Source: Bacilli bacterium (GTDB lineage: Bacteria; Bacillota_I; Bacilli_A; RF39; UBA660). From it: a stretch of 64,000 nucleotides of DNA. A program made the translations under genes and the position numbers. The notes below the pieces were generated by a model, which worked only from the letters and a program-made list of their open reading frames with translations, was not told the origin of the DNA and did not search any database. The stretch is from contig JAEEMF010000018.1 in NCBI GenBank assembly GCA_016283075.1, forward strand, positions 2,445 to 66,444, given 5' to 3'. Shown in pieces: positions 12,408 to 32,611 of this stretch. Position 1 is the stretch's first letter. Each line of letters starts with the position of its first letter.

Positions 12408-12417
12408 ATAAACCCTC

Positions 12418-14619
12418 CTATCCTAACCAGTTTACTGTCGTATCAGTTGCTCCCCAAGGAGAGCCAGATATTGAACCTTTCTTTCTATTTACATTTATTG
12501 TGGCATTTTTTGTACCATAGAAACAATTTTTATTTATTTTAGATACTTTAGAACCTATTGTTATATTTTTAAGAGACCCTTTATTATAAAATGCTCTTTG
12601 ATCAAGTGCTGTGACATTATCAGGAATTACAAGTGATGTTAATTTGTGATTCTTGAAAGCATCTTTACCAATTGTTTTAAGACCATTTCCGAGTGTTAAA
12701 CTAGTTAATTCATAGCCAATATCATCCCAGAATGCTCCATCTTCTATAGTAGTTATATTATCTGGAATAACTAAATTTTTAATACTATGATTATAGAATG
12801 ATGAATCAGTAATAGTTTTTAAGCCTGATCCAATAGTTAAATTTTCAAGCGCTAAACATCCCGAAAAAGCATGGCCTCCTAAGGACTTAAGACTATTAGG
12901 TAATACAACTTTTTTTAGGTTTATAAGTTTATAAAATGCAAAATTGTCAATACTTTCAAGCCCTTCATTCAAGTCCAGTGTCTTCAAATTTGAAGCTTGG
13001 ACAAAGGCATTATATTCAATCGTTTTAACTGAACCAGGTATTCTAACTGATTCAATGGATGTATCTTTATAAAAAGCATTATCTTTTATAAGTTCAACAC
13101 CATCTTTTATTTCTAAATTGGTTAATGCTTTATTTTCACAAAATGCACAATGACCAATTGTCTTTACAGATCCAGGTATAATTAAATTTTTAAATGCACC
13201 AAGTGTAAATGCTTGAAATCCAATTTCTTCTATTCCATCATGAAGAACCAGATTTGTAATTGTGGAAGTATTATCTCTACTATTAACGAATGAATTTTTA
13301 CCTATTTTTTTAACAGTTCCTGCTATTTCAACATTAACCGAATGGTTATTTGAAAAAGAATCTTGCCCTATAAATTCGATACCGTTTGGAATAACGATAT
13401 TTGTTAAAGAATTGGATTCAAATGCGCCATATGGAATCTTTTTAACTTTTCCATATACAATATTATCTAAATGATTTATAGAAAAAGATGCAAATCCAAT
13501 ATGATTAACATTCTTTAAGTCAAGACTTCCTGACAATGAACTAGAAGCAAAAGCTTTTGAGCCAATATATTCGAGTGATTCAGGTAAATCAAGACTTCCT
13601 AAAGTATTAGCCGCAAAAGCATTAGGTTCAATTTTTTTAACATAATCACCTAGATTTAAGGATTTAAGATTAGAATTATATGCAGCACCAAATGGAATTG
13701 TAGTTAAATACTTAGCACGTGAAAAATCTATACTATCTATTTCATTTATGGAAAGATCACGTTCCGAATAATCGTATGTGAAATAGCAAAATAAATATCC
13801 GTCCCCATCTTCCATTTTATAATAACCAGTTTTTTCTACTAAAGAATCGGAATTCTCAGCGGTATAACAATTTGTTTTAGCAAGTTTAGTTCCTTTATAA
13901 TTAATAATATAGGTAGTTAAGTCATCATTATACTCTATATCCGGGTCATAAATTTCATCATGACCATAATAATCATCTTCATCTTCAAAGATTCTTACTG
14001 CTATAAATCTATCTTTATCAAGGAATGTTAATTTTGCAAGTTCGGTTACTTTTTCTCCATTAATTGTACTAGGTATTATTATATCTCTAGAACATGTTTC
14101 ATCTTCAAATTTATATCCTGTTATAGTAACTCCTGTACTATTAGGTTCGTATGTAAAGCATGAGTTTTCTCCTCTTACATTAATTGGATCACTATAGTAG
14201 TCCTTTAGCTGCTGAGGCTCTTCACCATTAGTGTATGCTTTTGCTCTTGAACTTTCAAATGGTTTTACTGAATGAATTGTTCCTGTTTCATCACTAGCAA
14301 TTAGTGATATCCTGCAGTCTTCATCTATATCCATTATTCCCGAATAAGGAATATCTCCTGTTACATCTATATCTAAATCTTTTATTTTACCTTCTTCGAT
14401 ATAGTATCTTTTACCACCTATTGTTTTTCCATTTAAAACTTCAGTATTACATGTTGATTTAACATGTTCAACTAAATTATTAGATGATGTTTCAAATGCT
14501 TCTTTTTTAGATGCTTCTACAACCGAAGAAATACTTGGCATTGCTATTAAAAGTATAATGCCAAGTATTAATATAATTGCTAGAAGTTCTATTAATGTAA
14601 AACCTTTGTTGTTTTTCAT
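12418..14619 (-). CDS. modular type IV pilin-like protein: prepilin N-terminus fused to BspA-type leucine-rich repeats (paralog 1 of 3)
   Basis: MKNNKG|FTLIELLAIILILGIILLIAMPS is a class III signal (G-F-T-L-I-E plus hydrophobic helix). More than 15 repeats of LRR_5 type follow (IP.sVk.Ig..AF..c..L). Conserved C-terminus GSPWGATDTTVNWLG. Confidence 0.8.
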   Translation of the reverse strand: MKNNKGFTLIELLAIILILGIILLIAMPSISSVVEASKKEAFETSSNNLVEHVKSTCNTEVLNGKTIGGKRYYIEEGKIKDLDIDVTGDIPYSGIMDIDEDCRISLIASDETGTIHSVKPFESSRAKAYTNGEEPQQLKDYYSDPINVRGENSCFTYEPNSTGVTITGYKFEDETCSRDIIIPSTINGEKVTELAKLTFLDKDRFIAVRIFEDEDDYYGHDEIYDPDIEYNDDLTTYIINYKGTKLAKTNCYTAENSDSLVEKTGYYKMEDGDGYLFCYFTYDYSERDLSINEIDSIDFSRAKYLTTIPFGAAYNSNLKSLNLGDYVKKIEPNAFAANTLGSLDLPESLEYIGSKAFASSSLSGSLDLKNVNHIGFASFSINHLDNIVYGKVKKIPYGAFESNSLTNIVIPNGIEFIGQDSFSNNHSVNVEIAGTVKKIGKNSFVNSRDNTSTITNLVLHDGIEEIGFQAFTLGAFKNLIIPGSVKTIGHCAFCENKALTNLEIKDGVELIKDNAFYKDTSIESVRIPGSVKTIEYNAFVQASNLKTLDLNEGLESIDNFAFYKLINLKKVVLPNSLKSLGGHAFSGCLALENLTIGSGLKTITDSSFYNHSIKNLVIPDNITTIEDGAFWDDIGYELTSLTLGNGLKTIGKDAFKNHKLTSLVIPDNVTALDQRAFYNKGSLKNITIGSKVSKINKNCFYGTKNATINVNRKKGSISGSPWGATDTTVNWLG

Positions 14620-14629
14620 ATATATCCCT

Positions 14630-16723
14630 CTATTTTGCCCAGTTTACTGTTGTAGATGTTGCTCCCCAAGGAGAACCTGTTACACTTCCTTCTGGTTTAT
14701 TTATATTTATTGTTGCGGATGTAATGTTTTTAAATGCATTAGATCCTATTTTAGTAATATTAGATCCAATATTAAATGTTTTAATATTAGGACTTTCTGT
14801 AAATGCAGTTACACCTATTTCTTTTACACTATTTGGTAGTGTAAGTGTATTAACATTAAATGATTTATTAAATGCATTTTTACCTATATATTCAAGCCCT
14901 TCATTAAATGTTACTTTCTTAATTGAAGTATATCTACATTTAAATCCTCCTTCTTCAATTCTCTTAATACTACCTGGAATTGTAAGTGAACTAATACGAG
15001 AATTATAGAATGCACTTTTTGGTATTACAGTAAGTTTATTACTTAAAGTTAATGAAGAAAGTTCTCTACATCCATAGAAAGCTCCTTCACCTAAAGAGGT
15101 TAATGTATTAGGAAGTTTAACTCCAGTTAATACTGCATCATTTTGGAATGCCCAACCTCCTATTTCTTCAAGTCCACTATTAAGTGTTAATGTTTTTAAA
15201 AGTGTATTATTGAAGAATGCACCATCACCAATTATCTTAACAGAACTTGGAATTGTAAGCGAAGTAATATTTGTAGTAGCAAATGCTCCCATTTTTATTT
15301 CTTCTATACCACTACCAAGTGTAATTTTAGTAATAGTTGGAACTCCCATTTGATTTTCAAAAGCAGATTCTCCGATTACTTTAACAGATCCAGCAATTGT
15401 TACTGTATCAGTATTACTATCTGCAAAAGATAATCCTCCAATTCCTGTTACAGTACTAGGAATAACAATATTTGTTAAAGTATTATCTTGGAAAGCCATC
15501 TTTGGAATATAACTAACATTACCAAAATTAATTGAATCAATTGAATTTGAATTAAATGCACCCTGACCTATTTTTTCAACTTTATTTAAATCAAGACTTG
15601 ATAAATCATTATCAAGGAATGCAACTCCTCCTATTTCTTTTACATTATCTGGAATTTCAAGTTCAGTAATTGAATTATATCCAAAAGCACTACCACCTAT
15701 TTTAGTAATATAATTACCTATCTTAATACTTGTTAGACCTATACGATGAGCAAGCCCAAAAGGTATTTCAGTTAAATATTTAGCGCGTGAAAAATCAATG
15801 CTGTTTAAAGATACATTACCTTCATCACTACTCTTATTTATAGTGAATAAGCAGAAGTCATATCCATCACCATCTTGTTTATCATACTTACCTTCTGTTT
15901 CAAATACAATTGTGCTGCCTACATAACATGTAGTTTTTTTAACAAAAGAACCTTTATTATATACAGCTAAATTGTATTCAATAGAATCACTATCTTCAAA
16001 ACTAGGTAAATCATCACTATCTACATCTAAAACCATCATACTACCTGAACGGCTAAGACTATAAGGTCCTTTTGGTATTGATGTTCTCATAACGAAGAAT
16101 TTTTCTTTATCTACAAAAGCAAACTGTTTTAACTCAGTAACATTATTTCCTCCAATACTTGTAGGAATAATTACATCTTTAGAACAAGATTCATTTTCAA
16201 ATTTATATCCAGTAATAGTAACTCCTGTACTATTTCTTTTATATAAGAAACATGTATCAGTAGGACTTTCATTTATAGGTAAATTATTATATCTTTCAAG
16301 TTCTTCAGATTCTTCACCTATTTTATATGTCTTAGCTTTAGAAGAATCATAATCTTTTACAGCATAATATTTTTCTTCTTTATCTTCAACATATAAAGCT
16401 ACCTGACAATCATCATTAATAGTAATAGTCCCACTATTTGGTATTTCACCATCATAAGATATATCAAGGCCATCTATCTTACCATCATTAATAGTGTATA
16501 CTCCTGATAAGTTTTTGCCAGTAGAAGCATAAGTATTACATGTTGATTTAACATTACTAGATAAGTTATTTGAAGTAGTTTCAAAAGCTTCCTTTTTAGA
16601 AGCTTCAACAACTGAATTAATACTAGGAATTGCTATTAAAGCTATAATTCCAAGTATTAATATGATTGCTAAGAGTTCTATTAAGGTAAATCCTTTGTTT
16701 TTCTTCTTAGTAAGTATTTTCAT
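14630..16723 (-). CDS. modular type IV pilin-like protein with BspA-type LRR domain (paralog 2 of 3)
   Basis: MKILTKKKNKG|FTLIELLAIILILGIIALIAIPS, then an LRR_5-type repeat array. C-terminus GSPWGATSTTVNWAK. Confidence 0.8.
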   Translation of the reverse strand: MKILTKKKNKGFTLIELLAIILILGIIALIAIPSINSVVEASKKEAFETTSNNLSSNVKSTCNTYASTGKNLSGVYTINDGKIDGLDISYDGEIPNSGTITINDDCQVALYVEDKEEKYYAVKDYDSSKAKTYKIGEESEELERYNNLPINESPTDTCFLYKRNSTGVTITGYKFENESCSKDVIIPTSIGGNNVTELKQFAFVDKEKFFVMRTSIPKGPYSLSRSGSMMVLDVDSDDLPSFEDSDSIEYNLAVYNKGSFVKKTTCYVGSTIVFETEGKYDKQDGDGYDFCLFTINKSSDEGNVSLNSIDFSRAKYLTEIPFGLAHRIGLTSIKIGNYITKIGGSAFGYNSITELEIPDNVKEIGGVAFLDNDLSSLDLNKVEKIGQGAFNSNSIDSINFGNVSYIPKMAFQDNTLTNIVIPSTVTGIGGLSFADSNTDTVTIAGSVKVIGESAFENQMGVPTITKITLGSGIEEIKMGAFATTNITSLTIPSSVKIIGDGAFFNNTLLKTLTLNSGLEEIGGWAFQNDAVLTGVKLPNTLTSLGEGAFYGCRELSSLTLSNKLTVIPKSAFYNSRISSLTIPGSIKRIEEGGFKCRYTSIKKVTFNEGLEYIGKNAFNKSFNVNTLTLPNSVKEIGVTAFTESPNIKTFNIGSNITKIGSNAFKNITSATININKPEGSVTGSPWGATSTTVNWAK

Positions 16724-16802
16724 TTATATCACCCTTTCGATTCTTAGGTTCTATCTCTATTTATATACATTATACCATTATTTATAATATAATCACTATT
16801 AT

Positions 16803-18890
16803 TTATCCAAGCCAGTTTACTGTTGTAGATGTTGCTCCCCAAGGAGAATTTGCAACTGAACCACTAGCTTTATTTATATTAATTGTTGCACCAGTAACCG
16901 AAGTAAATGCTGTATTATGAATAGTTTTAATACCACTTCCAATATTAACTGTTTTTATACTCTTACTTCTAAATGCACCTTCACTTATTTCTTCAACATT
17001 ATCAGGAATATTAATAGTATCAGATTTTATCTGATCAAACGCATATTTTCCAATTGTTTTTAAACCGCTTCCAATTGTAAGAGTATGACTACTTCCTAGT
17101 GGAGAACCAAAAGCCCAGCTGCTAATTGATGTTACACTATCAGGTATTACAATATTTGTTAATCTATTATGATTAAATGCATATTCACCAATTGTTTCAA
17201 CACCGCTTCCAAGGTTTAATGTTGAAGCGTTACAGTTATTAAATGCATAACCACTTATTGTCTTAACACTATTTGGGATATTAATTGTTCCAATACTATT
17301 ATCATTATTAAACGCATAATATCCAATGGATTCAAGTCCTTCATTTAGAACAAGATTTGATAGTACACCACATCCAGCAAATGCAGTTCGACTTATTGTT
17401 TTTACTGAACCAGGAATATTTAAAGAAGTAAGATTACATTGTCCAAACGCACGATACCCGATGAATTCTACTCCGTTATCTAAAACAAGAGAAGTAAGAT
17501 AGTTGTCATTTCTATTATCTCCATTATAAAATGCATCTGAACTTATTCTTTTAACAGAACCAGGGATATGTGCATACTGAATTTTATTATTATAAAATGA
17601 AGATGAGCCAACTGCGGTTACAGTGTTAGGTAAATCAACTCTTGGAATTAAATTAACAGCAAAAGTAAAATGTTCAACTCTATTTATTATACCAAACTTT
17701 ATATCATCAATTTGATTATGATAAAAAGCATCTGGTCCAACCTTTTCAACGTTTTTTAAATCAAGAGATGTTATATTATTATTAAAAAATGCATCTCCAC
17801 CAATAATTTTCAAATTATTAGATATATCAATAGAAGTAATACTATTTGCATTAGTATTAGTTTTACCGTTTGATTTAAAAGCACCAGCTCCTATTTTTGT
17901 AATGTAATTACCAATTTTAATACTAGTTAATCCCATGTTAGCAGCAACACCTCTTGGTATTTCTGTTAAATACTTAGCATGAGAAAAGTCTATACTATTT
18001 AGTGTATATGGATAAGTTACTGAATTAGTAGTATTTGCTGAAGGCTGACAAAAAAGATATTCATCATCTAAAGTGTGATTATAGTCTGCACCTTCTGAAT
18101 GTAAGGTTCCGGATGAATCAGAACAAGTATATCCAGTTATTTCTGTACCTTTTTTAAGAATAAGAAGTGTTATTTTATTATCATCTTTTGTAATTGTATC
18201 TTTATCATATTTAAGATAATCCATAGATACCTTTCCATCAGTATACTCAATATAATATGAATAATAAATAATTGATTCTGGATCTATAAAAGCAAATTCT
18301 TTTATAGCAGTAACATTTTTACCACCTATTGATGTTGGTATAACTACATCTTTAGAACATGATTCATCTTCATGTTTATATCCTGTTATTGTTACTCCTG
18401 TACTATTGTTTTCATATAAGAAACATGAATTATTTTGAGGAGCATATATAGGAATTTCACTATTATTTATTAATGAATCATTTACTGTTCCTTTATCATA
18501 GATTTCTACTCTTTCATCTTTAAAATCCTTGTATGCTACGTAGTTACCTGAATCATCTTCAGCATATATAGATACTTCACATTTTTCATTTATAGAGATA
18601 AATCCTGATTTAGGGAGTTTACCTGTAACTTCAAGTTTTAATCCCACTACTTCATTATCTACGATATCGTAAGTTTTAGCTTCAACTTGTCCTGATATCA
18701 TAAGAGTTTGACAGTTAGTACTTGCTCCTTTAGCAATATTATCTGAAGATACTCTAAATGCTTCTTTCTTAGATTGGTTTATTACACTATTAACACTAGG
18801 TATTGCTATTAGTGCAATAATACCAAGAATAAGTATTACAGCAAGTAATTCTATTAAAGTAAATCCATTTGTATTCTTACGTATTTTCAT
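16803..18890 (-). CDS. modular type IV pilin-like protein with BspA-type LRR domain (paralog 3 of 3)
   Basis: MKIRKNTNG|FTLIELLAVILILGIIALIAIPS, then an LRR_5-type repeat array. C-terminus NSPWGATSTTVNWLG. Confidence 0.8.
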   Translation of the reverse strand: MKIRKNTNGFTLIELLAVILILGIIALIAIPSVNSVINQSKKEAFRVSSDNIAKGASTNCQTLMISGQVEAKTYDIVDNEVVGLKLEVTGKLPKSGFISINEKCEVSIYAEDDSGNYVAYKDFKDERVEIYDKGTVNDSLINNSEIPIYAPQNNSCFLYENNSTGVTITGYKHEDESCSKDVVIPTSIGGKNVTAIKEFAFIDPESIIYYSYYIEYTDGKVSMDYLKYDKDTITKDDNKITLLILKKGTEITGYTCSDSSGTLHSEGADYNHTLDDEYLFCQPSANTTNSVTYPYTLNSIDFSHAKYLTEIPRGVAANMGLTSIKIGNYITKIGAGAFKSNGKTNTNANSITSIDISNNLKIIGGDAFFNNNITSLDLKNVEKVGPDAFYHNQIDDIKFGIINRVEHFTFAVNLIPRVDLPNTVTAVGSSSFYNNKIQYAHIPGSVKRISSDAFYNGDNRNDNYLTSLVLDNGVEFIGYRAFGQCNLTSLNIPGSVKTISRTAFAGCGVLSNLVLNEGLESIGYYAFNNDNSIGTINIPNSVKTISGYAFNNCNASTLNLGSGVETIGEYAFNHNRLTNIVIPDSVTSISSWAFGSPLGSSHTLTIGSGLKTIGKYAFDQIKSDTINIPDNVEEISEGAFRSKSIKTVNIGSGIKTIHNTAFTSVTGATININKASGSVANSPWGATSTTVNWLG

Positions 18891-18944
18891 ATTACCACCT
18901 ATTATAATTCTAACACATTTTACATAATAAAAAAAGTAATTTAT

Positions 18945-18974
18945 TTGACAAATTAAAGAAGAAAACTTTATAAT
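18945..18974 (+). promoter_or_regulatory. sigma-A type promoter for the glmS leader
   Basis: TTGACA (18945-18950), 18-nt spacer, TATAAT (18969-18974). Confidence 0.65.
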
Positions 18975-19007
18975 GAATTTAAGATTTAATAGTAGAAAGG
19001 AGCACTT

Positions 19008-19150
19008 AAATCTAGCGCCAGGCCTATTTGGTGACGAGGTTAGTAATTATCGAAATATTCGGCGGGTATTACTACGGGGAGAAGTTCTCGATAGATATAT
19101 TTACAAAAAACAAAATCAAAATTGTAACAAAAGAATATATCACACTTTGC
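19008..19150 (+). promoter_or_regulatory. glmS ribozyme / GlcN6P riboswitch (3' boundary approximate)
   Basis: Cleavage-site and core motifs AGCGCCAGG...GACGAGG...UUAUCGAAAUAUUCGGCGGG match the conserved glmS ribozyme core. Sits directly upstream of glmS. Confidence 0.85.
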
Positions 19151-19174
19151 ATATTTAAGGAGGATTTTTTAATA

Positions 19175-20986
19175 ATGTGCGGAATAATTGGATATGTAGG
19201 TAAAAAAGACTGTTTAAAAGTATTAATTAATGGTCTTGAAAAGTTAGAATACCGTGGATATGATTCAGCAGGAGTAGCCTACATCAAAAACAAAAAGATT
19301 GAAATTATTAAAGAAGAAGGAAAAATTGTTAATTTAAAAAAGAAAATTAATTTTAAAATAGATTCAAATTTAGGTATAGGACATACTAGATGGGCTACTC
19401 ATGGTAAACCAAATTATGTTAATAGTCATCCACATAGAGTTGGAAAAATTACTATTGTACATAATGGTATTATTGAAAACTATCTAGAACTTAAAAAAGA
19501 ATTAATTAAAAATGGATATAGTTTTAAAAGTGATACTGATACTGAAGTAGCATGTGCCCTTTTAGATTATATTTATAAAGAAACTCATAGTATAGAGCAA
19601 ACACTAGCTATCTTTAAAGATAAAGCTGAGGGAGCTTATGCTATAGGTTTAATATGTGATGATAATTTAGATTACTTATATGCTGTTAAAAAGGATAGTC
19701 CCCTAATAATAGCACTAGGTAAAGAAGAAAACTATATAGCAAGTGATGTACCAGCAATACTTGAGTACACTAATAAATACATTACTTTAGAAGATGGTGA
19801 ATTTGCTAAAATATCAAATGATAAAGTAATAGTATTTGATAAAGATGCCGAAATAGTTAAAAAAGAAATAAAAGTATATGATGGTAAATCTGGTGATTTA
19901 AATAAAAATGGATTTGAACACTATATGCTTAAAGAAATATATGAAGAAGTAGAAGTTGTAAAACAAGTTACTAATGATTATATAAAAGATGGTATTAAAT
20001 CACTTACTAGTAATATGCCTAAACTAGGTAATTATGAAAGAATTGATATAGTAGCATGTGGTAGCGCTTACCACGCCGGATTAGTAGGTAAATCTTTAAT
20101 AGAAGGATATGCTAATATACCAGTAAATGTTGAATTAGCAAGTGAATATAGATATAAGAAGTTATTCTTAAATAAGAATGTACTTGTCATACTAATATCT
20201 CAGTCAGGAGAAACTGCTGATACTTTAGCAGCACTTAAAATTGCTAAGGAAAAAGGAGCACATACTCTAGGAATAATAAATGTAGTTGGTAGTTCTATTG
20301 CAAGATATTCTGATGATGTTTTATACACTAAAGCAGGAGCAGAAATAGCCGTAGCAACAACAAAAGCTTATACAGCCCAAATTACAATGCTAGGTCTATT
20401 AGCACTTAATCTAGCTTATAAGAATAAAGAAATGACTGAAAAAGAAGTATTAGAAGCTTTAGATGAAGCTAAAAAACTTCCTACTAATATTCAGTCAGTA
20501 CTTAATGAAGCTGACTTCTATAAAACTATAGCAAGAAAAATATTTAAACATAATGATGTATTTTTTATTGGAAGACTTACTGATTATGCTTTAGCCCTAG
20601 AAGGATCACTTAAATTAAAAGAAATAGCATATGTTAATTCACAAGGCTATGCAGCCGGTGAATTAAAACATGGTACTATTTCTCTAATTGAAAAGAATAC
20701 TCCAGTATTTGGTATAGTAACTGATACAAATATTGCTAGTAAAACACTAAGTAATATGAAAGAATGTAAGTCTAGAGGAGCAAACATAATTGCCCTAGTC
20801 TCAAATGATTTAAAACTAGATAAAGAAATATATGATACTTTAATAGAAGTACCTAAAGTAAGCCCTATATTCCAAGGAGTACTTACTGTAATACCACTAC
20901 AACTTATTTCATACGAAGTAGCAAAATTAAGAAAATGTAATATAGATAAACCTAAGAATTTAGCTAAATCTGTTACAGTAGAATAA
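19175..20986 (+). CDS. glmS: glutamine--fructose-6-phosphate aminotransferase (isomerizing)
   Basis: True start is MCGIIGYVG (Cys2 nucleophile) at 19175 with an AAGGAGG RBS. Two SIS domains; C-terminal KSVTVE. Confidence 0.97.
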   Translation: MCGIIGYVGKKDCLKVLINGLEKLEYRGYDSAGVAYIKNKKIEIIKEEGKIVNLKKKINFKIDSNLGIGHTRWATHGKPNYVNSHPHRVGKITIVHNGIIENYLELKKELIKNGYSFKSDTDTEVACALLDYIYKETHSIEQTLAIFKDKAEGAYAIGLICDDNLDYLYAVKKDSPLIIALGKEENYIASDVPAILEYTNKYITLEDGEFAKISNDKVIVFDKDAEIVKKEIKVYDGKSGDLNKNGFEHYMLKEIYEEVEVVKQVTNDYIKDGIKSLTSNMPKLGNYERIDIVACGSAYHAGLVGKSLIEGYANIPVNVELASEYRYKKLFLNKNVLVILISQSGETADTLAALKIAKEKGAHTLGIINVVGSSIARYSDDVLYTKAGAEIAVATTKAYTAQITMLGLLALNLAYKNKEMTEKEVLEALDEAKKLPTNIQSVLNEADFYKTIARKIFKHNDVFFIGRLTDYALALEGSLKLKEIAYVNSQGYAAGELKHGTISLIEKNTPVFGIVTDTNIASKTLSNMKECKSRGANIIALVSNDLKLDKEIYDTLIEVPKVSPIFQGVLTVIPLQLISYEVAKLRKCNIDKPKNLAKSVTVE

Positions 20987-21016: not shown

Positions 21017-21338
21017 TTGCAGATAATGTTATAAATGAAACTGCATGAATACATAGGAATATACCTAGTATTAAAGATATAGTTGATCCAGATAAAATCA
21101 TAAGTACACCTGCTACTAAACCGATAACTGCAGCAGAGAATGCTTGTTTCTTAGAAAGTGATACTGCTAGTGCTAATAAGATTAATCTAACTATTCTAAG
21201 ACCTACATAAGTTATAGCAACATTTTGAACTACATCAACTATTATACCTATAATAGTAATTACAAACATTAATTCAAAATCTCTTTGTAGGTACCAAGCC
21301 ATCTTTTCTTTTTTACTTATGTTCTTCGTTTTGCTCAT
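21012..21338 (-). CDS. small 3-TM membrane protein, hypothetical
   Basis: ORF with hydrophobic helices. Overlaps the upstream gene by 26 nt; an alternative ATG lies at 21302. Confidence 0.5.
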   Translation of the reverse strand: MSKTKNISKKEKMAWYLQRDFELMFVITIIGIIVDVVQNVAITYVGLRIVRLILLALAVSLSKKQAFSAAVIGLVAGVLMILSGSTISLILGIFLCIHAVSFITLSAK

Positions 21339-21885
21339 CTTTCTTTTCCTCCTTTTCTAAAGCAATATAATATTTTTTATAGTTAAATGTATTATTTTCC
21401 ATCATTTCATTAGGTACTTTTATAAGGAGTTTATCGATACTTTCAGTATCTACTTTAGATTTCTTACCATCTTCATCATATGTATAAAAATAAAGATGAA
21501 CATCTTCTTTTTTAAGTGCATCTATCTCACTAGGAATCTCATTTAACTTAGATAAAGTATTAAATAAGTAGCTTTGCTCTCCTACGACCTTATTATCCTT
21601 ATCTACAAGATAAAACTCTAGCATTCCAAGAAAGAATTTTCCATCCTTACGTTTATTATCTGTATGAAGAACTACTTCATAATATTCATTTTCATCTCCA
21701 AATACATCTTTTAATTTTGAAAATCCTACTACTTCTTTTACTTTAATAGAAAAGTCATATACACCATCTAAGGTATTAATATTAATAGTTTTACCAGTTC
21801 CTACGGAAGTTACTTCTTCTTTAGTACATCCGGATAATATTAAAGTAAAAATAAGTAATAAGAATAATTTAAAATACTTTTTCAT
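21313..21885 (-). CDS. lipoprotein, beta-sandwich (DUF4352-like) guess
   Basis: Signal peptide with lipobox LSGC. Lys/Glu-rich C-terminal tail. Confidence 0.5.
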   Translation of the reverse strand: MKKYFKLFLLLIFTLILSGCTKEEVTSVGTGKTININTLDGVYDFSIKVKEVVGFSKLKDVFGDENEYYEVVLHTDNKRKDGKFFLGMLEFYLVDKDNKVVGEQSYLFNTLSKLNEIPSEIDALKKEDVHLYFYTYDEDGKKSKVDTESIDKLLIKVPNEMMENNTFNYKKYYIALEKEEKKDEQNEEHK

Positions 21886-21928
21886 ATATTCATCTACCCT
21901 GATATAATTATATCAATTTAAAGACAAT

Positions 21929-21954
21929 AAAAAAAGAGATTTTTAAAATCTCTT
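21929..21954 (-). terminator. rho-independent terminator
   Basis: AAGAGATTTT/AAAATCTCTT palindrome plus a T-run on the minus strand, directly after the TAG at 21956. Confidence 0.65.
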
Positions 21955-21955
21955 T

Positions 21956-23287
21956 CTATTTAACACGACTCTTATTTTCTTCAAATGATTGTACACAGTC
22001 ATTTCTTTGAGAAATAACACTTGATTTAGCTTCAAGATTTTCAGCATCTCTTTCAAGTAAGAATGTTAATTCTCCTTTTCCTTCTGGATTATACTTAGCG
22101 TCTTTAACAGCTTTTTTAAGAACTAATTTGTAATCAGCAAATTTATTTTGATCAGCATATTCTAAACTTTCAGTATATCCGTAAGAATCTACTTCATTAC
22201 CTTTTTCATCATATTTAACCCAAGTTAATTTATGACCATTATTTACGAAATTTGCTATTTCATTATCAAATAAGAATACTCCTGAAACTATATTATTTGT
22301 AACATAATCTTGTCCACTATTTCTTGTATAATGAAGTCTCTTATTGAGTTCAAAATCAAGAATTCTCTTTTGTACTTTTGTAGCACATTCTAATCCTTCT
22401 TCAGAATATGGGTTAACATTTTCTGGATAAGAAGCAATTATATCTTTTACATCTTCAATTGTTTGAATAGCATATAATGCATTCATTCTATTATTTGCAT
22501 CAATAACACATACTGACCAGTTAATAGTATTATCTGAAGCTAATACTTCTGCATTTCTAATAGCATCTGATACTGTAACAGCATTTTGGAATAATCTATT
22601 AAAGTTTTCATCAGTTTGAGTATATTTAGCAAACAATGCAGCATTTGTATTTAATATATGATCATAGTTAACCATAAATGTAAATGCATGAAGTTCATCA
22701 TGATTTAAAGGTCTATATTGTGGTACACCTTGTGAATCTACTCCATCAAATACTTGTAAATCTTCACATTGAACTTCTAATAACTTAGCATATTCATTTA
22801 ATAATTCATCAGTTACAACAGTAGTTTCTTCTTCGAATGTTGCTGGTAAATTATCTAAATCGCCAACACCAGTTACAGCGCTTGTAACACTTGTAATAGC
22901 TTCAGCTACTTTACTATCTTCACCAGTCTTTTTACCACATCCATGTAACGAAGCAATAAGACCAATTAAAGCAGTAGTAGTAATAACTGAAGAAGTAGCA
23001 GCTACAGCAACTGTTTTAGCAGTTTTATTTTTAGGCTTATCAGCACCATCTTTAATAGATTGCTTATATAATTCCTTATCAAATAATTCTACATCTGAAT
23101 TTACTGTATTACCATATAAACGTGGTAATAAATATACTTTACCATCAGTTTTATGTCTAATAAGTAAGTCTTTGCTACCATTAGTACCCATGTATTCAAG
23201 TTCATCTTCAGGAATACGTGTCCAGCTTTCTACCCAATTACCATTTATATCCTTTGCAGCGGTATTTAAATCAACTAATTTTCTCAT
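21956..23287 (-). CDS. hypothetical bitopic protein (about 100-aa N-terminal domain, one TM, about 320-aa C-terminal domain)
   Basis: The ATG at 23287 has a GGGAGG RBS; the track start at 23344 is an upstream extension. TM segment is TVAVAATSSVITTTALIGLIASL. Confidence 0.55.
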   Translation of the reverse strand: MRKLVDLNTAAKDINGNWVESWTRIPEDELEYMGTNGSKDLLIRHKTDGKVYLLPRLYGNTVNSDVELFDKELYKQSIKDGADKPKNKTAKTVAVAATSSVITTTALIGLIASLHGCGKKTGEDSKVAEAITSVTSAVTGVGDLDNLPATFEEETTVVTDELLNEYAKLLEVQCEDLQVFDGVDSQGVPQYRPLNHDELHAFTFMVNYDHILNTNAALFAKYTQTDENFNRLFQNAVTVSDAIRNAEVLASDNTINWSVCVIDANNRMNALYAIQTIEDVKDIIASYPENVNPYSEEGLECATKVQKRILDFELNKRLHYTRNSGQDYVTNNIVSGVFLFDNEIANFVNNGHKLTWVKYDEKGNEVDSYGYTESLEYADQNKFADYKLVLKKAVKDAKYNPEGKGELTFLLERDAENLEAKSSVISQRNDCVQSFEENKSRVK

Positions 23288-23318
23288 AATTTCCTCCCTT
23301 TTTAAGGCTATATAAATA

Positions 23319-23348
23319 ATAGTTGCGACTACTACGAGCCGCAACTAT
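23319..23348 (-). terminator. hairpin between the 23351 and 21956 genes (weak terminator or attenuator)
   Basis: ATAGTTGCG...CGCAACTAT, a 9-bp stem with a 12-nt loop, right after the stop at 23351. The T-run is poor. Confidence 0.35.
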
Positions 23349-23350
23349 AA

Positions 23351-25048
23351 CTATTTACAACTCTTAGTTCCAGTTAAACTGTAACCTTTGTTTAGTAATG
23401 AAGTATCATTATCTGAACTACTCCATCTAATATCAACAGTACCTGAAATGTATTGTTTTTCTTTGTATCTATAGTATGTTACATTTTCAACAACATTTTC
23501 TTTCTTATAGATAGCAACTGTCTTAACACATTTTTCTCCATTTAGAGTGTAACCTTTTTTGTTACATGCGTAAGATACAGATTCTTTCTTATCTATTTCT
23601 TTATTGTAAGTTCCATAACATCTATCCTTAGTATCATTTAATTTATATCCTTGTGGACAGCTTGGATCTTTCTTTATTGTTTCTTTAATAGTTCTTGAAC
23701 AATAACTATCAGTTGCAATATCATATCCTTGTGGACAGTGAGCTGGTTTAATATCAGTAGAGGCTACTGTTTTAACACATTCACTACCAACTTGAGTATA
23801 AGATGAATCAGGGCAAGTCTTAGAAGCATATTCTTTTGTTTCTTGACATCCTGTAGTTGTAACAACAGCTTTGTAAATATTATATGTTACTAAAACCTGA
23901 TCTTTACACTCTGGTAAACAACTTGCATCTGTTCTTGTACTAATAGTTTCATAAATATATGTACTATTATTTGCAGGTTTATATGTTTTATCATATTCAG
24001 TTCCTACATAAGCACCTTTAGTTGTAGTAGTTTTGCAACCAGTTGTTTGTTTTTTAGAACAACGGTCACCATCTTCATCATATCCTTGTGGACATACAAG
24101 TGCTTTTTTATCAGTTTCAGATGATTGTTTATAACATTTGTTACCACTTGGTGTATAACCAGCATCATCACAAACATAATATGCATGAGTTATAGTAGTT
24201 TTTGTACCATAACATACACCATTTGTTGGGCCATCATATCCTGATGGACATTTTGAATTATAATATGCAGTTACAGGTTTAACACATTTTCCTGTAGACT
24301 TATCTTCGTTATAACCTTTTGGACAGTACTTAGTTACTGTTTTAGCAGCAGCTTCTTCTTCTGTCTTATAACCACTAATAACATCTTTAGTACCAGTGAC
24401 TACTTTTTCTGTTTTAGTTTCAACTTTACGATATTCTGATGCAGTAGCTTTAGTAGTTGACCAGCTTGACCAGTTACCAAAGTCACCCCATGATCCATTA
24501 GTTACTTTCTTATATTCATATTGACAAGTAACAACCTTTTTAGGTTCATTACAAGTAACTACTGGAGTTTCTTTCTTTTCACATACTCCTGTTGCTTTAC
24601 AATAATCGTAGCATCCTAAGTGAACGATTATATAAGCATCATTATCAGTACATGATAAGTTAACCTTCATTTGATATTCATTTTCAAGTTTTACAACTTC
24701 TACATAAGAGTCTTTTAAATCACAACTTTTACCATTACCATCTTTAAATTCAACAAGTAATTTATTATCAATCATTTCCTTTAAAGTCATAGATTTAACA
24801 TCTTTAACTTTTTCTGGTAATCTTTCAGTAGTGTAATAACTTACAGCAGCATCTTTCATTGTTTGTAAGTTAGTATTAAATATACCACTTGTTAAAGCAT
24901 CTAATTTACTGTTAATATCAGCAAATTCTTTATTTATACTACCCTTTGTAGGAAATAAACAAACTAGTATAAATACGAATAAAACTATGAATAATATTTG
25001 GATAAAAATATCTCTTAATGAGAAACCATCATTTTTTTCACTATACAT
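23351..25048 (-). CDS. Cys-repeat surface protein with degenerate prepilin-like N-terminus
   Basis: The RBS GAGGGGGA favours the ATG at 25048, giving MYSEKNDG|FSLRDIFIQILFIVLFVFILV. There are 8 copies of C-x3-[GS]Y-x5-7-C (e.g. CPKGYNEDKSTGKC, CPQGYDEDGDRC). Also a WGDFGNWSSWS motif and a C-terminal YYRYKEK. Confidence 0.6.
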   Translation of the reverse strand: MYSEKNDGFSLRDIFIQILFIVLFVFILVCLFPTKGSINKEFADINSKLDALTSGIFNTNLQTMKDAAVSYYTTERLPEKVKDVKSMTLKEMIDNKLLVEFKDGNGKSCDLKDSYVEVVKLENEYQMKVNLSCTDNDAYIIVHLGCYDYCKATGVCEKKETPVVTCNEPKKVVTCQYEYKKVTNGSWGDFGNWSSWSTTKATASEYRKVETKTEKVVTGTKDVISGYKTEEEAAAKTVTKYCPKGYNEDKSTGKCVKPVTAYYNSKCPSGYDGPTNGVCYGTKTTITHAYYVCDDAGYTPSGNKCYKQSSETDKKALVCPQGYDEDGDRCSKKQTTGCKTTTTKGAYVGTEYDKTYKPANNSTYIYETISTRTDASCLPECKDQVLVTYNIYKAVVTTTGCQETKEYASKTCPDSSYTQVGSECVKTVASTDIKPAHCPQGYDIATDSYCSRTIKETIKKDPSCPQGYKLNDTKDRCYGTYNKEIDKKESVSYACNKKGYTLNGEKCVKTVAIYKKENVVENVTYYRYKEKQYISGTVDIRWSSSDNDTSLLNKGYSLTGTKSCK

Positions 25049-25177
25049 ACACATATCCCCCTCAATTTCAGGTTATTATAACACTTTTTGGCATTTTGTC
25101 AAACTGATTAGGGCACACCAAAAATCTATTTTCATTAACAATAAAATTATATCATTATATATATATAAATGTCAAAG

Positions 25178-26368: not shown

Positions 26369-29365
26369 TTACTTTAATACTCTATATTTATTCTTTTTAA
26401 ATAAAGATATATGCTTCTTACATTCTTTTAAAGCATCAACATCTTTTTCATAAACAGTAATATTACTTATAGTCTTACTTTCTTCATCATATGCTATAAA
26501 CCAGTTTTCTCCTACTAAATATGAAGCAGTATCATCAAAAGAAGTAGGTACTTCTTCTTCAGTATCTAAGTACTGCATAGTAGCTATTCTTCTAATATCT
26601 TCTTTAGCTTCATTATATGAAGAAGTATAAGGTTCTCTTCTTTCTCTTTTATATAGTTTATTAGGTATACCAGCATAAACATCCCATATAGAAGCATCAC
26701 CTATCAAATATGTGTAACCTAAACGATCACTCATCTTTCTAAATAAATCGAAACCGTCAAAACTACTACCAGATATTTTTAATCTTACTATTTCAATAGG
26801 AGTTTTATCATCTTTACATAAATGAGTTTTTAATACTATTTCTTCTCCAATATGTCTTAAAAGATTAAATATATCTTCTAATTCAGCTACTTCACTTGAA
26901 TCAGAACTATTATAAATAAAATTACCAAATGAAATACCATTACCTTTTCTAGTTACAGATACTGTTCCAATATAGTTATCAAAAGAATCACATACTCTTA
27001 TAACTGAAGACTCATAACTTTCTAAATTAGTTCGAGTCAATAATGTAGATGGACTCAAATCACGATTAATAGCATCTTTTATAAAGTCTCCATTTGAAAA
27101 AGTATAATTTTCATACTTATAATTTTCAAAGGAACCTTTTACAAAAGGGATAATAGATTTATTTTTAATAGTTAAATACTCAAAGTCAACTGAATCAGAA
27201 CTACCAAATGAATTATACTGTTGATTAACAACTTTATGAAAATATTCATCTCCTAATAAATCGTAGCCTTCTTCATCAATGTATTGTAAGCGATTTGCAA
27301 TACCAAATAATTCATAAACATTATTTGTTTTAATATAATCTTTTTTCATATAATTATTTATTAATCTACTTATATAGAATTTTTCATACATATTGCAATC
27401 ACATTCTTTGTTTTTGCCTCTAAAATAATTATCATTGTCGTTAGCAAGAATAAAATGAAATGCACTTGTTCTTTTTAAATATTCTTCGTATTTATCAGCG
27501 TTATCAAGAAATCCCTTTAAATCACTTGTAGGAACTTCTAATAATTCTTTTATAAATGAGAATATACAAGTTGTAGTTTGAACCTCAAAATGTTCATCAT
27601 CAAAAGGAATATCCTTAGGAATATGTTCAAAAGGGCCCATAAAGTAATTATCATAATCTCCTTCAAAAGTTTTATAATATGCTTCTTCTAGTACTTCCTT
27701 ATATATTTTATACATTCTTTCTTTTTCTTCCCAGGTTACTTTATCAGGCAAATCTAAATTAAACCATCTATCGTAATATACTCCATCTCTTTCTCTTATA
27801 TAGTTAAGATAATAAGAAATAGTTTTATTATTTATATCTATTTTTCCACAATTTAACCATCTTATTATTTTGTATAATGTTTTCTCTTTTTGATACATTA
27901 TATGGTCTTCTTCAATAGGAATTTGCTCATTATAATCATCTTTACCATACAAAAAACCTTCAAAACAATCTAAATTTTCTCTTAAATATTGTTCTTCAAC
28001 TTTATCCATCTTATATTTTTCAGATACATCTTTTATTATATTTTCTAAATAACCATTACTATAAGAAAAAATCTTTTTCAAACTATTTCTTCTATCATTT
28101 AAATCATAATACTTACCTTTATCCTTTTTTGGAATTAAGATAGGCCCAAATATTTCATAATATCTAGTTTTAATATAATTTTCTTTTTCTCTTTCCAAAA
28201 ATAGTTTTTCGCTTTTAAAAATAATATTAGCATCATCAGCTGAGTAAGTTTCATTTTTGTTATACTCATAAGCAAATTTTTGCATAGCAGTAAGTAACTC
28301 TTTATATTCTTCATGAGTTAACTGTTTTTTTAATATATTTAAATATTCTTCTATATAAAGGAAACTGGTAAAATAACCACAATCTTTTAAATAACTAATT
28401 ATCTTGTTAGCTATATTATTAGGATATGGTTCATATACTAAATTATCATACCACTCTTCTTCGAGTGCTTTTCCAAAAAAGTTTTTTATTTTACTTACTG
28501 TTAAAGGTGTACTAAAACCTGCTCTAATTATCTTACATAATGAAGGAATGTTTTCTTGTAAAACATTAATTCCTTCTTTTTGTCTTTCTATACACGCAAA
28601 ATTATGTAAATATTTATCTAAAACTCTTTTTACAAATGATTCAAGATTATTAGATGTGGTTAAAACATCTAAATTAAAATGAAAAATATCTTCTTCAAAA
28701 GTATAACCTTTATCTTCTAAATATTTAAATAAATCTTTATTTTTTTTAGCATAGTATGCTAAATTATCATCTTTTCTCCATCTCCATCCCCTTTTATTAC
28801 TTTCAATCATATAACGAGAATCAATAATTTGACATGCATCGCAGTTATCTAAAGATAGTAAGTAGTTAATAAACTTTTCTTTTTCTTCTTCACTAAAATA
28901 TCTTTCATCTGCCCATCCAGCTGAAGAAGGATCCAGCTTAGCGGAATTCAATGCCACTTTAAAATTTCTTTTTAAATACTGTGGACTGTTTCCTACAAGA
29001 ATATAATTATTTTTTATAGCAAGTTCTACTAAATCATCTATAATGTTTCTATTATTTTTAGTTATAGATGTTCCATTAATTGATTTAATATTATTTTTAG
29101 CGGCATTTAATATGCATTCTTTACTATTTTTTAGAAGAGATGGTGTATCATCATTAAAAATGAGATCATAATTACAAAAATAATTTACTAAATAATCTAT
29201 TTGTTCTCTAGACAATTTCCACTCTGGGAATGTTTCTTTAGAAGATATTTCTTCTGCTACTTTTCTAATATCTTTAGATGGAAATAATGAATTTCTAGAT
29301 ATAGGAATATTTTCATGCTGAATTATATAATTAAATAATTTAATCTTTTCTTCTAATGTATACAT
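26369..29365 (-). CDS. large cytoplasmic protein of unknown function, type A (A1, 998 aa)
   Basis: ATG with an AAGGAG RBS embedded in the 3' end of B1 (26-nt overlap). Full-length paralog of 32612..35569, sharing DDEHFEV, LEREKE.YI, YKI.KEVLEE and VG[DE]NWFI.YDE. No signal peptide, TM or P-loop seen. Confidence 0.85.
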   Translation of the reverse strand: MYTLEEKIKLFNYIIQHENIPISRNSLFPSKDIRKVAEEISSKETFPEWKLSREQIDYLVNYFCNYDLIFNDDTPSLLKNSKECILNAAKNNIKSINGTSITKNNRNIIDDLVELAIKNNYILVGNSPQYLKRNFKVALNSAKLDPSSAGWADERYFSEEEKEKFINYLLSLDNCDACQIIDSRYMIESNKRGWRWRKDDNLAYYAKKNKDLFKYLEDKGYTFEEDIFHFNLDVLTTSNNLESFVKRVLDKYLHNFACIERQKEGINVLQENIPSLCKIIRAGFSTPLTVSKIKNFFGKALEEEWYDNLVYEPYPNNIANKIISYLKDCGYFTSFLYIEEYLNILKKQLTHEEYKELLTAMQKFAYEYNKNETYSADDANIIFKSEKLFLEREKENYIKTRYYEIFGPILIPKKDKGKYYDLNDRRNSLKKIFSYSNGYLENIIKDVSEKYKMDKVEEQYLRENLDCFEGFLYGKDDYNEQIPIEEDHIMYQKEKTLYKIIRWLNCGKIDINNKTISYYLNYIRERDGVYYDRWFNLDLPDKVTWEEKERMYKIYKEVLEEAYYKTFEGDYDNYFMGPFEHIPKDIPFDDEHFEVQTTTCIFSFIKELLEVPTSDLKGFLDNADKYEEYLKRTSAFHFILANDNDNYFRGKNKECDCNMYEKFYISRLINNYMKKDYIKTNNVYELFGIANRLQYIDEEGYDLLGDEYFHKVVNQQYNSFGSSDSVDFEYLTIKNKSIIPFVKGSFENYKYENYTFSNGDFIKDAINRDLSPSTLLTRTNLESYESSVIRVCDSFDNYIGTVSVTRKGNGISFGNFIYNSSDSSEVAELEDIFNLLRHIGEEIVLKTHLCKDDKTPIEIVRLKISGSSFDGFDLFRKMSDRLGYTYLIGDASIWDVYAGIPNKLYKRERREPYTSSYNEAKEDIRRIATMQYLDTEEEVPTSFDDTASYLVGENWFIAYDEESKTISNITVYEKDVDALKECKKHISLFKKNKYRVLK

Positions 29366-32300: not shown

Positions 32301-32519
32301 ATTTCTAAATATTTCTAAATCATAGTTCTTAAAAGAATAATTATGCGCACAAAAAACCCTAATAAGTTCTTTTTCTTCTTCAGAACTTAAACTTTCATTC
32401 CTAGTAAGTTTAATAAGAGTTTTTCTATTTATAGCGCCTTTATTCATTAAATTATTATTTAGAATAAACTCTATTAACTTATAATTTTCTCTCATATTAG
32501 GATATATTACATCCGCCAT
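29340..32519 (-). CDS. large cytoplasmic protein of unknown function, type B (B1, 1059 aa)
   Basis: Full-length paralog of 35550..38720. Shared strings are KLVNRLNSGYIKYTDKDVE, DDEKYNAFT, VSGIDT.ACFKV, NQLRTI, VFITKSYGFNT and FVGDNWY. Confidence 0.85.
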   Translation of the reverse strand: MADVIYPNMRENYKLIEFILNNNLMNKGAINRKTLIKLTRNESLSSEEEKELIRVFCAHNYSFKNYDLEIFRNSIECTLSSIRKDPNSVQELPKAFEVGYEDAIFNSLKPNYYITEKTPFYLKGLFKLALRSIEKDIFSVDYLDYNSLSDNEKNIIIEKICSSNKYYINEDTPDFLRDSKDITEVSYKNNPSETILYCNNSLLPNKYIIDMIEKGKDITQELSVNHLEDKEINKKLFSYKGRKRIDKAKYNDRVSALISKAVSTPLTIENMHDYGRVVGYMEMKKTGETANPFSLIGSSLRANTSYNVSLNDLYEVLNGMKEELPKDKVEVLHDAMGRYHELYHNEGEPEKQNKYLSLISSICSLYYSQCIENELESGYDHIRNYLLNYYILRKDNKAVKSYIMSKRYIKTIKRFYLNGSFDEFVNYLKDKYGDSELVDALFESVCEKDEFDTPGKPEEYDTYCISKEVNKLVNRLNSGYIKYTDKDVERFKNYIEKCTINGKTTYKNNTAKVTDIDECIEYEKKLYLAKRIVREIIMKAKEVNEDNEIFNFQLAEIDESNFCFNDDFYRFNYNYVPDNILVHLLNSSYTDPDYKIKLKLPFAVNDILDDEKYNAFTKLMCDKGLFWIFLFFSNNNRYYFSYDQILSFGKAYDLLREMGINELNYFNYLTSIDIVNNCSKEELAILEDLDVIQKVIYSTEYTSEDTPERVEIAAELVAQMAEKNKSTVPYIKGSTNGYNYSLYDSQDPSILVSGIDTDACFKVSGNDNDFLHYCAINPNGFVIKITDNEGKFIARASGLRHGNSIYLNQLRTIYDVAMNSSDYTDSQLTELRKVVIKASEDFINISSSTEPEDNQIENVFITKSYGFNTYKSNVGINLRREIGELSFVEDTEDFEEFLEYTENLDDGKLTTDYCGSFPIICLASKYELNEYGEYDKKNYIKKYDAEAYYKRTRNKIIFESNPSKRVVAKINKINAISSKNNEELYEEYIPDKSDFVFVGDNWYIIVGDNKCRALSLPFDEDANNEICSVESSILNDKIIKVDGNEIEGDNVNVYIRRKD

Positions 32520-32586
32520 ATTCTCACCTTAGCCCGTAGTATCTCAAGTAGTTTATTATTGTAATACAAAGTATCTTTTATATCAA

Positions 32587-32609
32587 GAAAAAAAGAAGGA
32601 TTTCCTTCT
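32587..32609 (-). terminator. rho-independent terminator after A2
   Basis: AGAAGGA-TT-TCCTTCT plus T7 on the minus strand. Confidence 0.7.
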
Positions 32610-32611
32610 TT

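Follow-up and report, generated by a model that had tools for sequence, protein, structure and literature searches.

Three tandem genes of a Bacilli bacterium encode modular type IV pilins with BspA-type leucine-rich repeat modules

Introduction

Can a type IV pilin carry a whole leucine-rich repeat (LRR) solenoid? This question is raised by three adjacent genes at positions 12418–18890 of a 64,000-nucleotide stretch from a Bacilli bacterium (GenBank assembly GCA_016283075.1, contig JAEEMF010000018.1, positions 2,445 to 66,444 of the forward strand), the whole of which is referred to below as the window. The three open reading frames (ORFs) all lie on the minus strand, and their products of 733, 697, and 695 aa are designated megapilins A, B, and C. 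A first-pass annotation of the sequence had described them as paralogues in which canonical prepilin N-termini are fused to BspA-type LRR arrays. We found the ORFs as described, and our analysis indicates that each megapilin joins an entire small type IV pilin to a BspA-type LRR module.

Modular pilins were defined by Raynaud et al. 2021 (PNAS, PMC8179133) by way of Streptococcus sanguinis PilB, and the accompanying InterPro survey of proteins combining an N-terminal IPR012902 with another domain comprised more than 1,200 proteins in 264 architectures. Such proteins explain how simple type IV filaments obtain new functions, and experiments so far cover von Willebrand factor A (vWA) and lectin modules of one streptococcus. 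Among the adhesin-like proteins on the surfaces of gut and oral microbes, those of the LRR_5/BspA type are some of the commonest; if a clade of uncultured gut bacteria mounts LRR_5 modules on pilins, these two large literatures would be joined.

Domain content of the megapilins

Megapilin A (12418–14619, minus strand, 733 aa) begins with the class III signal MKNNKG/FTLIE, megapilin B (14630–16723, minus strand, 697 aa) with MKILTKKKNKG/FTLIE, and megapilin C (16803–18890, minus strand, 695 aa) with MKIRKNTNG/FTLIE, the slash marking the predicted cleavage site. In C, the signal is followed by a pilin head, an LRR_5 module, and the tail SPWGATSTTVNWLG; A has two LRR units that B and C lack, amounting to an insertion of 44 aa. 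Reading of the sequences showed that the leaders are basic, 6 to 11 residues long, and terminated by glycine in all three proteins, and that the mature proteins begin with FTLIELLA, which includes Glu5, and also have Gly14 and Pro22. In type IVa pilins, the latter two residues bracket the part of α1N that melts on polymerization.

Profile hidden Markov model (HMM) searches gave scores above every cut-off in all three proteins, as the first-pass annotation had proposed to check: PF07963 (N_methyl) matched with 29.1–30.1 bits (cut-off 21.2), the NCBIfam model TIGR02532 with 18.7–27.4 bits (cut-off 16.3), and PF13306 (LRR_5) with 234–297 bits in three to four stretches per protein (gathering cut-off 27.7). 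Together with the directly read Gly-1, Phe1, and Glu5, the first two models confirm the canonical prepilin N-termini.

The conserved head cysteines and the SPWGAT.TTVNW tail reported earlier were also present in all three paralogues. Three Cys pairs are invariant among the megapilins (numbered as in A), namely C57/C102 in the head, C154/C176 in the cap, and C251/C278 in the insertion described below; the head pair is the same in all three and at least 90% conserved across the family, and the conserved tail reads ...GSPWGAT.TTVNW. The overall identity among the paralogues is 42–48% at the amino acid level. No C-terminal LPXTG motif, lipobox, or other anchor was found in the megapilin sequences, which makes α1N the sole attachment.

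Predicted anatomy

The full-length AlphaFold2 (AF2) model of megapilin B, built on a 41-sequence alignment, had a mean predicted local distance difference test score (pLDDT) of 85.9 and a predicted template modeling score (pTM) of 0.75. This confident model, a check that the first-pass annotation had suggested, places a pilin-like N-terminal helix and β head before an LRR solenoid.

Residues 1–135 of B (16319–16723, minus strand) form a complete pilin module composed of the leader, helix α1 at residues 14–67 (54 residues), and a four- to five-stranded β head at residues 74–134 with the pair Cys62/Cys106, at pLDDT 86–88. A low-confidence linker at residues 136–156 (16256–16318, minus strand; pLDDT ~54) joins this module to the LRR module. 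The latter begins with an orphan first LRR unit, or N-cap, at residues 157–205 (16109–16255, minus strand; 159–198 in the model), which carries a conserved Cys pair and the family-wide conserved pattern CFLY..TGVTITGY..C..DVIIP..I.G..VT....FAF. It continues with a variable β-rich insertion of ~100 aa at residues 206–306 (15806–16108, minus strand; 208–296 in the model) that has its own Cys pair, and then with the contiguous BspA-type LRR solenoid at residues 307–672 (14708–15805, minus strand), which comprises ~15 repeats of 21–23 aa and is modeled at pLDDT >90 as far as residue ~680. The C-terminal cap or tail, ININKPEGSVTGSPWGATSTTVNWAK, occupies residues 673–697 (14630–14707 with the stop codon, minus strand), and the same tail occurs in the relatives P0013, P0009, and L085.

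Repeat parsing gave ~15 contiguous repeats of 21–23 aa in B and C and ~17–18 in A, where the two-unit insertion is clean. The earlier description of an LRR array of ~550 aa was thus accurate as to LRR_5 content and inaccurate as to continuity: the orphan unit and the ~100-aa insertion break the array, and the module consists of an orphan cap, an insertion, a solenoid of ~340–400 aa, and a terminal cap.

Identity among the paralogues is strongly modular. It is high in α1N (residues 1–33 of B; 82–89%), the N-terminal cap (61–78%), and the tail (64–76%), intermediate in the solenoid (42–44%), and low in the β head (residues 68–135 of B; 31–41%), the linker (19–38%), and the insertion, which is the least conserved part (19–32%).

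Homology of the N-terminal part to type IV pilins

To characterize the pilin module, a head profile was made from the first ~140 residues of 25 family members and searched against the PDB sequences. The matches were type IV pilins only (geopilin, MshA, S. sanguinis PilE1, PAK pilin, and D. nodosus FimA), with a best E value of 1.7e-10 and with alignments covering the whole of α1, over 55–70 positions. The AF2 model of the head alone reached pLDDT 87.8. Over the family of 41–53 sequences, the leader, Gly-1, Phe1, and Glu5 show no variation.

Relatives of the megapilins include pilins without any further module. In one locus (L022) of a related metagenome-assembled genome (MAG) whose FtsZ is 83% identical to that of the window, a pilin of 139 aa with this head stands alone; since this homologue exists, the first ~135 residues of the megapilins can be equated with an entire pilin. 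Another relative (L047) has an ATPase 61% identical to that of the window, with two minor-pilin-like genes and a tandem set of four pilins of 167–188 aa on its flanks; the α1N of these four pilins, GFTLIELLAVIVIMGIILAIAIPS, nearly matches that of the megapilins. With N_methyl and LRR_5 domains separated by a linker of low pLDDT at ~136–156, the megapilins fall under the definition of modular pilins given by Raynaud et al. 2021 (PMC8179133). The competence-pilus pilin ComGC was considered separately and rejected, as its model scored 25.7–27.6 bits on the megapilins against an equivalog cut-off of 75.

The LRR module

The LRR module retrieved solved LRR proteins by sequence and by structure. In phmmer searches it matched 4fs7 with an E value of 1.6e-31 and the pneumococcal adhesin PcpA (4cp6) with 5.8e-20, and Foldseek with the full model of B recovered only LRR proteins, with 4gt6 and 4fs7 at E ~1e-9; the matches from the two methods comprise 4fs7, 4gt6, PcpA 4cp6, 4h09, and TpLRR. 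Multiple repeat blocks above the PF13306 threshold, together with a solenoid like those of solved LRR_5 proteins, identify the module as a BspA-type LRR. Membership in the HupY/LrrG adhesin family (NF047961, equivalog) was rejected, with 125–160 bits against a cut-off of 1250; the repeat type alone is held in common.

Pilus machinery of the same genome

A PilB/GspE-type T2SSE assembly ATPase of 476 aa is encoded at 61899–63329 (plus strand), ~43 kb from the triplet, and matches PF00437 with 422 bits. The same ATPase protein occurs, exactly, on a contig of assembly GCA_016295205.1 that runs past the right edge of the window, and this assembly also holds an exact copy of megapilin B. On that contig, 1–3.5 kb past the edge, we found a prepilin peptidase (Peptidase_A24+A24_N_bact), which shows CPVC..CKNC and GGGD motifs, together with a PilC-type platform protein of the T2SSF family (664 aa; L004 9487–11481, minus strand). 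The first-pass annotation had named a genome devoid of pilD- and pilC-type machinery as grounds for abandoning its interpretation; since pilD-, pilC-, and pilB-type genes are all present, this objection falls away.

The ATPase scored 486 bits with the GspE model, 470 with PilB, and 266 with ComGA (cut-off 300), and the platform scored 261 with GspF and 120 with ComGB (cut-off 240). Both thus score higher on GspE/PilB and GspF/PilC than on ComGA/ComGB, and no equivalog cut-off was reached. Assignment to a Com pilus was rejected, as the equivalog cut-offs for ComGC, ComGA, and ComGB were all missed. As separate observations, the ATPase is devoid of the N-terminal domain of GspE/PilB (its match begins at profile position ~106–177) and has a Pro/Gln-rich C-terminal tail, and the platform has an N-terminal extension of ~260 aa with transmembrane (TM) segments and a Lys-rich low-complexity stretch.

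Two genes divergent from the ATPase gene encode further proteins with class-III-like N-termini. The 323-aa protein at 60839–61810 (minus strand; RKG/FILTE) has no Pfam match and is a minor-pilin candidate by its motif, and the 540-aa protein at 59215–60837 (minus strand; MKKNG/FTVVE) ends in a glycine-rich ALK_LTK_GRD domain and is a candidate for a second type of modular pilin. Regular-expression scans of the window and a 9-kb extension beyond its right edge returned five class-III ORFs, all of them long.

Distribution of the family

The first-pass annotation had suggested looking for the same fusion elsewhere by comparative genomics, and the fusion was recovered repeatedly. A word-indexed search with residues 1–330 of B returned 968 relatives, and PF07963 and PF13306 occurred together in ~40 of the top 120, mostly in proteins of 445–567 aa. 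An exhaustive phmmer search with residues 1–205 of B against 1.84 billion cluster representatives (50%-identity clusters) gave 531 clusters at E ≤ 1e-10. Among the top 150, the alignments of roughly 60 extend across head and LRR cap alike; these relatives reach 869 aa and come mostly from gut MAGs labeled Bacilli or Mycoplasmatota. All 10 sampled representatives contained LRR_5, to which glycine-rich or CUB domains were added in some; other family members carry DUF285 or unrecognized modules on the same pilin head.

Among species-representative genomes, 328 stretches encode relatives, and the following locus counts refer to the best 80 of these. Almost all of them come from uncultured gut or digester MAGs labeled Bacilli, Tenericutes, Mollicutes, Mycoplasmatota, or Erysipelotrichia (some labels being wrong), and several MAGs supply four to six separate family loci each. 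The 80 loci contain 140 class-III ORFs, 128 of which are complete: 53 fall below 200 aa, 65 reach at least 300 aa, and 17 at least 600 aa. Tandem arrangement recurs in L085, where an LRR gene ending in ...GSPWGTKSAPTVNWLG is followed by a 617-aa megapilin gene and another pilin-module gene, with gaps of 8 nt. In GCA_023429745.1 (L001/L002), three N_methyl+LRR_5 genes (891, 545, and 816 aa) are interspersed with hrcA-grpE-dnaK-dnaJ beside an SSPI spore-protein gene; the fusion thus also occurs in a probable spore-former, again among housekeeping genes.

Proposed display on a type IV filament

Taking these results together, we consider it reasonably probable that the megapilins are PilD-processed modular type IV pilins, located at the tip of a short-pilin filament or in low abundance within it, with the LRR solenoid serving as an adhesin. 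The analysis shows the domain content, the predicted structure, the machinery genes, and the distribution of the family; processing, polymerization, filament position, and ligand binding are the parts of this proposal that we infer. The prepilin would insert into the membrane through α1N, and the prepilin peptidase encoded ~46 kb away would cut after Gly-1 and methylate Phe1. The PilB/GspE-type ATPase and the PilC-type platform would then add the megapilin to a filament made mainly of short pilins with nearly the same α1N. Because of its bulk, the megapilin would most probably occupy the tip or be present in low abundance. A flexible linker of ~20 residues would tie the ~135-residue pilin module, with its disulfide-stapled head, to the ~540-residue LRR module, the solenoid of which may bind a protein or glycan on the surface of the host or of neighboring microbes.

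Several observations weigh against this proposal. The head-only model had no significant Foldseek match in the PDB (best E value 0.48), and the only pilin in the list was C. difficile PilW, at a non-significant E value of 2.4, so that the pilin fold of the head rests on AF2 topology and α1 homology. A rigid solenoid of ~60 kDa would have to cross the peptidoglycan layer. The triplet is situated outside the pilus locus, between a divergent glmS and uppP-murG-murB-divIB-ftsA-ftsZ on its own strand. Among the 80 loci, only three to four have machinery genes within 8 kb, and these are mostly from cultured Paenibacillus, Brevibacillus, and Neobacillus, in which the matched gene has a short N-terminal pilin match and no LRR fusion. 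PilM/N/O and PilT were not seen in the window or the 9 kb beyond, and two regular-expression scans in six frames found no short major pilin in the same region.

Some of these points would also suit a distinctly less probable explanation, in which class III signals display proteins on the surface without long pili. The pilin module would then be a general anchor or the carrier of a short stub, as in the archaeal bindosome, whose binding proteins carry class III signals, or a type II secretion system (T2SS) pseudopilus, and the LRR module would lie close to the cell. The variety of modules on the same head (LRR_5, LRR_5 with a glycine-rich domain, LRR_5 with CUB, DUF285, and unrecognized ones) is consistent with such a role, as are the proportions of long proteins among the complete class-III ORFs (65/128 of at least 300 aa and 17/128 of at least 600 aa), the dispersal of the family genes away from the machinery with four to six separate loci in several MAGs, the minimal set of visible machinery (ATPase, platform, and peptidase), and the apparent co-transcription of the triplet with housekeeping cell-wall genes. 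However, Gly14, Pro22, and an α1N near-identical to that of the relatives' short pilins suggest co-polymerization; short family pilins of 100–200 aa are abundant (53/128), which indicates that filaments are probably made; and the characterized precedent, S. sanguinis PilB/PilC, is filament-borne.

A broader form of the carrier idea, which we regard as speculative and rather doubtful, is that the conserved head of ~135 aa serves as a general carrier for combinatorial surface modules (LRR_5, glycine-rich, CUB, DUF285, and unrecognized) in a low-GC lineage of uncultured gut Bacilli/Mycoplasmatota, with carrier genes scattered and partly placed in housekeeping operons and with the filament system as the main route of adhesin display. 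If true, such a system would parallel, in bacteria, the surface display by class III signals known from archaea, and it might constitute a functional class of type IV filament of its own.

It is very improbable that the megapilins are instead the major subunits of a thick "bottle-brush" filament with an LRR solenoid on every subunit. This arrangement would suit the finding that neither the window nor the surroundings of the ATPase gene yielded a short major pilin, the length of the two class-III proteins encoded by the ATPase (323 and 540 aa), and the predicted flexibility of the linker, but a module of ~540 residues per subunit would be sterically very crowded at the ~1-nm rise per subunit of type IV pili, the β heads are only 31–41% identical between paralogues, and the relatives have classical short pilins.

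Divergence of the triplet

The first-pass annotation had further proposed that the triplet could generate adhesin variation by recombination, an idea to which we now give very little credence. Three tandem paralogues on the same strand with conserved ends (the α1N, cap, and tail identities given above) would be compatible with such a system, as would the recurrence of tandem arrays in a relative (L085). At the nucleotide level, however, the longest identical run between any pair is 37 nt, and the best extended matches between paralogues cover 197 nt (81%) and 188 nt (77%). No inverted repeats, homopolymers of at least 8 nt, or simple sequence repeats were found at the triplet, and no truncated silent cassettes either: all three are complete genes with Shine-Dalgarno (SD) sequences, and they are just 42–48% identical overall. 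No sequence feature speaks for active switching or gene conversion; as judged by sequence comparison, the triplet looks as if its genes had duplicated long ago and then diverged into three variants that are now fixed. As the paralogues are old and vary chiefly in the insertion and along the solenoid, they probably represent three specificities that are fixed and not switched.

The least credible explanation is that the N-termini are Sec signal anchors that resemble prepilins by chance on ordinary membrane-anchored LRR surface proteins, which the first-pass annotation had listed as a reason to discard its reading: the lack of a significant Foldseek pilin match for the head and the distance of the genes from the machinery would fit, but two independent curated HMMs exceed their cut-offs in all three proteins, the homology to solved pilins extends beyond the motif over 55–70 α1 residues, the leader, Gly-1, Phe1, and Glu5 do not vary across the family, stand-alone pilins with the same head exist, and the genome encodes a prepilin peptidase.

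Genomic setting and other features of the window

The megapilin genes are closely spaced, with 79 nt from C to B, 10 nt from B to A (14620–14629), and 10 nt from A to uppP (undecaprenyl-diphosphatase; 12408–12417), and each is preceded by its own SD sequence. A promoter-like TTGTCA-16-TATTAT lies upstream of C at 18924–18951 (minus strand), in the region divergent from glmS, as a consensus match, and an extended -10-like TGgTATAAT at 16769–16777 (minus strand) in the 79-nt spacer may precede B, as suggested by reading the sequence. A promoter and terminator scan found no terminator-like site between the megapilins and uppP. Because its site counts in this region were not above the shuffled expectation, the operon structure is something we infer; the 10-nt gaps and the lack of a terminator-like site suggest that the megapilins are co-transcribed with cell-wall genes, and co-transcription of B and A with the cell-wall and division genes murG-murB-divIB-ftsA-ftsZ is plausible.

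Among the relatives, murG-murB were found near a pilin-module gene in L022 and L018 only, with ftsZ as well in L022; there, the pilin gene sits after ftsZ, in an arrangement unlike that of the window.

On the other side of the triplet, a glmS ribozyme (RF00234, 67.6 bits) at 19003–19150 (plus strand) precedes glmS (19028–20986, plus strand). The mechanically assigned TTG start of glmS at 19028 overlaps the ribozyme, and the true start probably lies further downstream. Positions 18945–18974 hold a perfect match to the sigma-70 consensus (TTGACA-18-TATAAT).

Further along, between the glmS region and a block of large ORFs, three ORFs of 190, 462, and 567 aa without a Pfam family occupy 21313–25054 (minus strand), the 190-aa product having a lipoprotein-like N-terminus (LILSGC). 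The block itself, at 26369–38732 (minus strand), consists of four ORFs of ~1000 aa with neither a Pfam match nor a signal peptide, which represent a duplicated two-gene module: the 998- and 985-aa products are 31% identical and the 1059- and 1060-aa products 40% identical, both over the full length.

Seven tandem paralogues of 172–427 aa are encoded at 46977–54682 (minus strand), where the GC content climbs to 35–39%. Six of the seven contain a glycine-rich ALK_LTK_GRD domain (PF12810), and all have an N-terminal TM anchor followed by the conserved module AYSY(I/L)A..VG(F/Y)TP.D.EW.V.N...ALD.LY. This AYSY-type module was also found on at least one phage-tail-collar (PF07484) protein just outside the window (L004 15943–16665, within the region L004 15289–17551). 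The ALK_LTK_GRD domain recurs on the class-III-signal protein by the ATPase (59215–60837) and on the pilin-head+LRR_5 fusions P0137 and P0139.

Comparison with known systems

The first-pass annotation had regarded pilins bearing BspA-type LRRs as an undescribed architecture, and this did not hold. IPR026906, the InterPro entry for BspA-type LRR/LRR_5, occurs seven times in Dataset S1 of Raynaud et al. (PMC8179133), where the architecture IPR012902-IPR026906 is listed for 18 proteins (rank 7) and IPR012902-IPR026906-IPR026906 for 6 proteins; the combination of N_methyl with a BspA-type LRR has therefore been catalogued, by accession only. The text of the same paper includes IPR026906 among the 15 most frequent architectures and groups the extra domain under "no clear function." A literature search (prepilin/BspA; modular pilin/leucine-rich repeat) found no paper on LRR-bearing pilins as such. 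The triplet is accordingly a further case of the known modular-pilin design, with a domain combination that is catalogued but uncharacterized, and our result refines a known concept at the level of annotation rather than revealing a new mechanism. It adds a detailed anatomy, a link to machinery of the same genome, and a lineage-wide expansion. Studies of binding and structure could draw on the triplet as three natural variants of a single scaffold, and the proposed display, if true, would hint at how reduced-genome gut organisms of the Bacilli/Mycoplasmatota type attach to hosts or partners.

The census entries share the N_methyl and LRR_5 combination with the megapilins. They are given as accessions and counts, without anatomy, structure, taxonomy, or context, whereas the window proteins are longer and contain three to four LRR_5 stretches.

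Oversized, tip-located minor pilins with extra domains that contact a ligand from a pilin module are also exemplified by CofB/TcpB of type IVb pili (T4bP) and by Thermus ComZ with its β-solenoid (PMC8179133). The modules of these proteins are, however, pilus-specific and unrecognized by general domain models, they belong to other filament classes, and no sequence relationship to the megapilins was detected.

Proteins of the BspA family with LRR_5 repeats (Tannerella BspA, PcpA 4cp6, TpLRR 6mlx, the gut-commensal 4fs7, 4gt6, and 4h09, and HupY/LrrG) resemble the megapilins in repeat type and predicted solenoid, and they are surface-exposed with adhesin-type roles. They differ in being anchored through Sec signals and choline-binding, lipoprotein, LPXTG, or type IX secretion system (T9SS) domains, whereas the megapilins are anchored through a pilin module.

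The archaeal bindosome (Bas system), in which solute-binding proteins carry class III signal peptides, likewise uses such signals to place non-pilin functional proteins at the cell surface. It is archaeal and relies on other machinery, and the BasE model scored 29.9 bits on the window ATPase against a cut-off of 1000; moreover, the megapilins keep a full pilin head and not the signal alone.

The likeness drawn by the first-pass annotation to S. sanguinis PilB (vWA) and PilC (lectin) (PMC8179133; Shahin et al. 2023, PMC9934059; PMC10191384) is well founded, as in both cases a complete pilin module bears a grafted adhesive module. The shared features are a class III signal, a small complete pilin module, a short linker, and a bulky adhesive domain that is not pilus-specific, in a monoderm host; the predicted display is in both cases by a type IV filament, the tip being the probable place. 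The differences are that the adhesive domain is a BspA-type LRR solenoid of ~540 aa in the megapilins rather than a vWA or lectin domain, that the streptococcal genes belong to a pil operon whereas the megapilin genes lie ~43 kb from the machinery in a cell-division and cell-wall cluster, and that the megapilins are three diverged tandem paralogues for which no PilA-like tip partner was identified.

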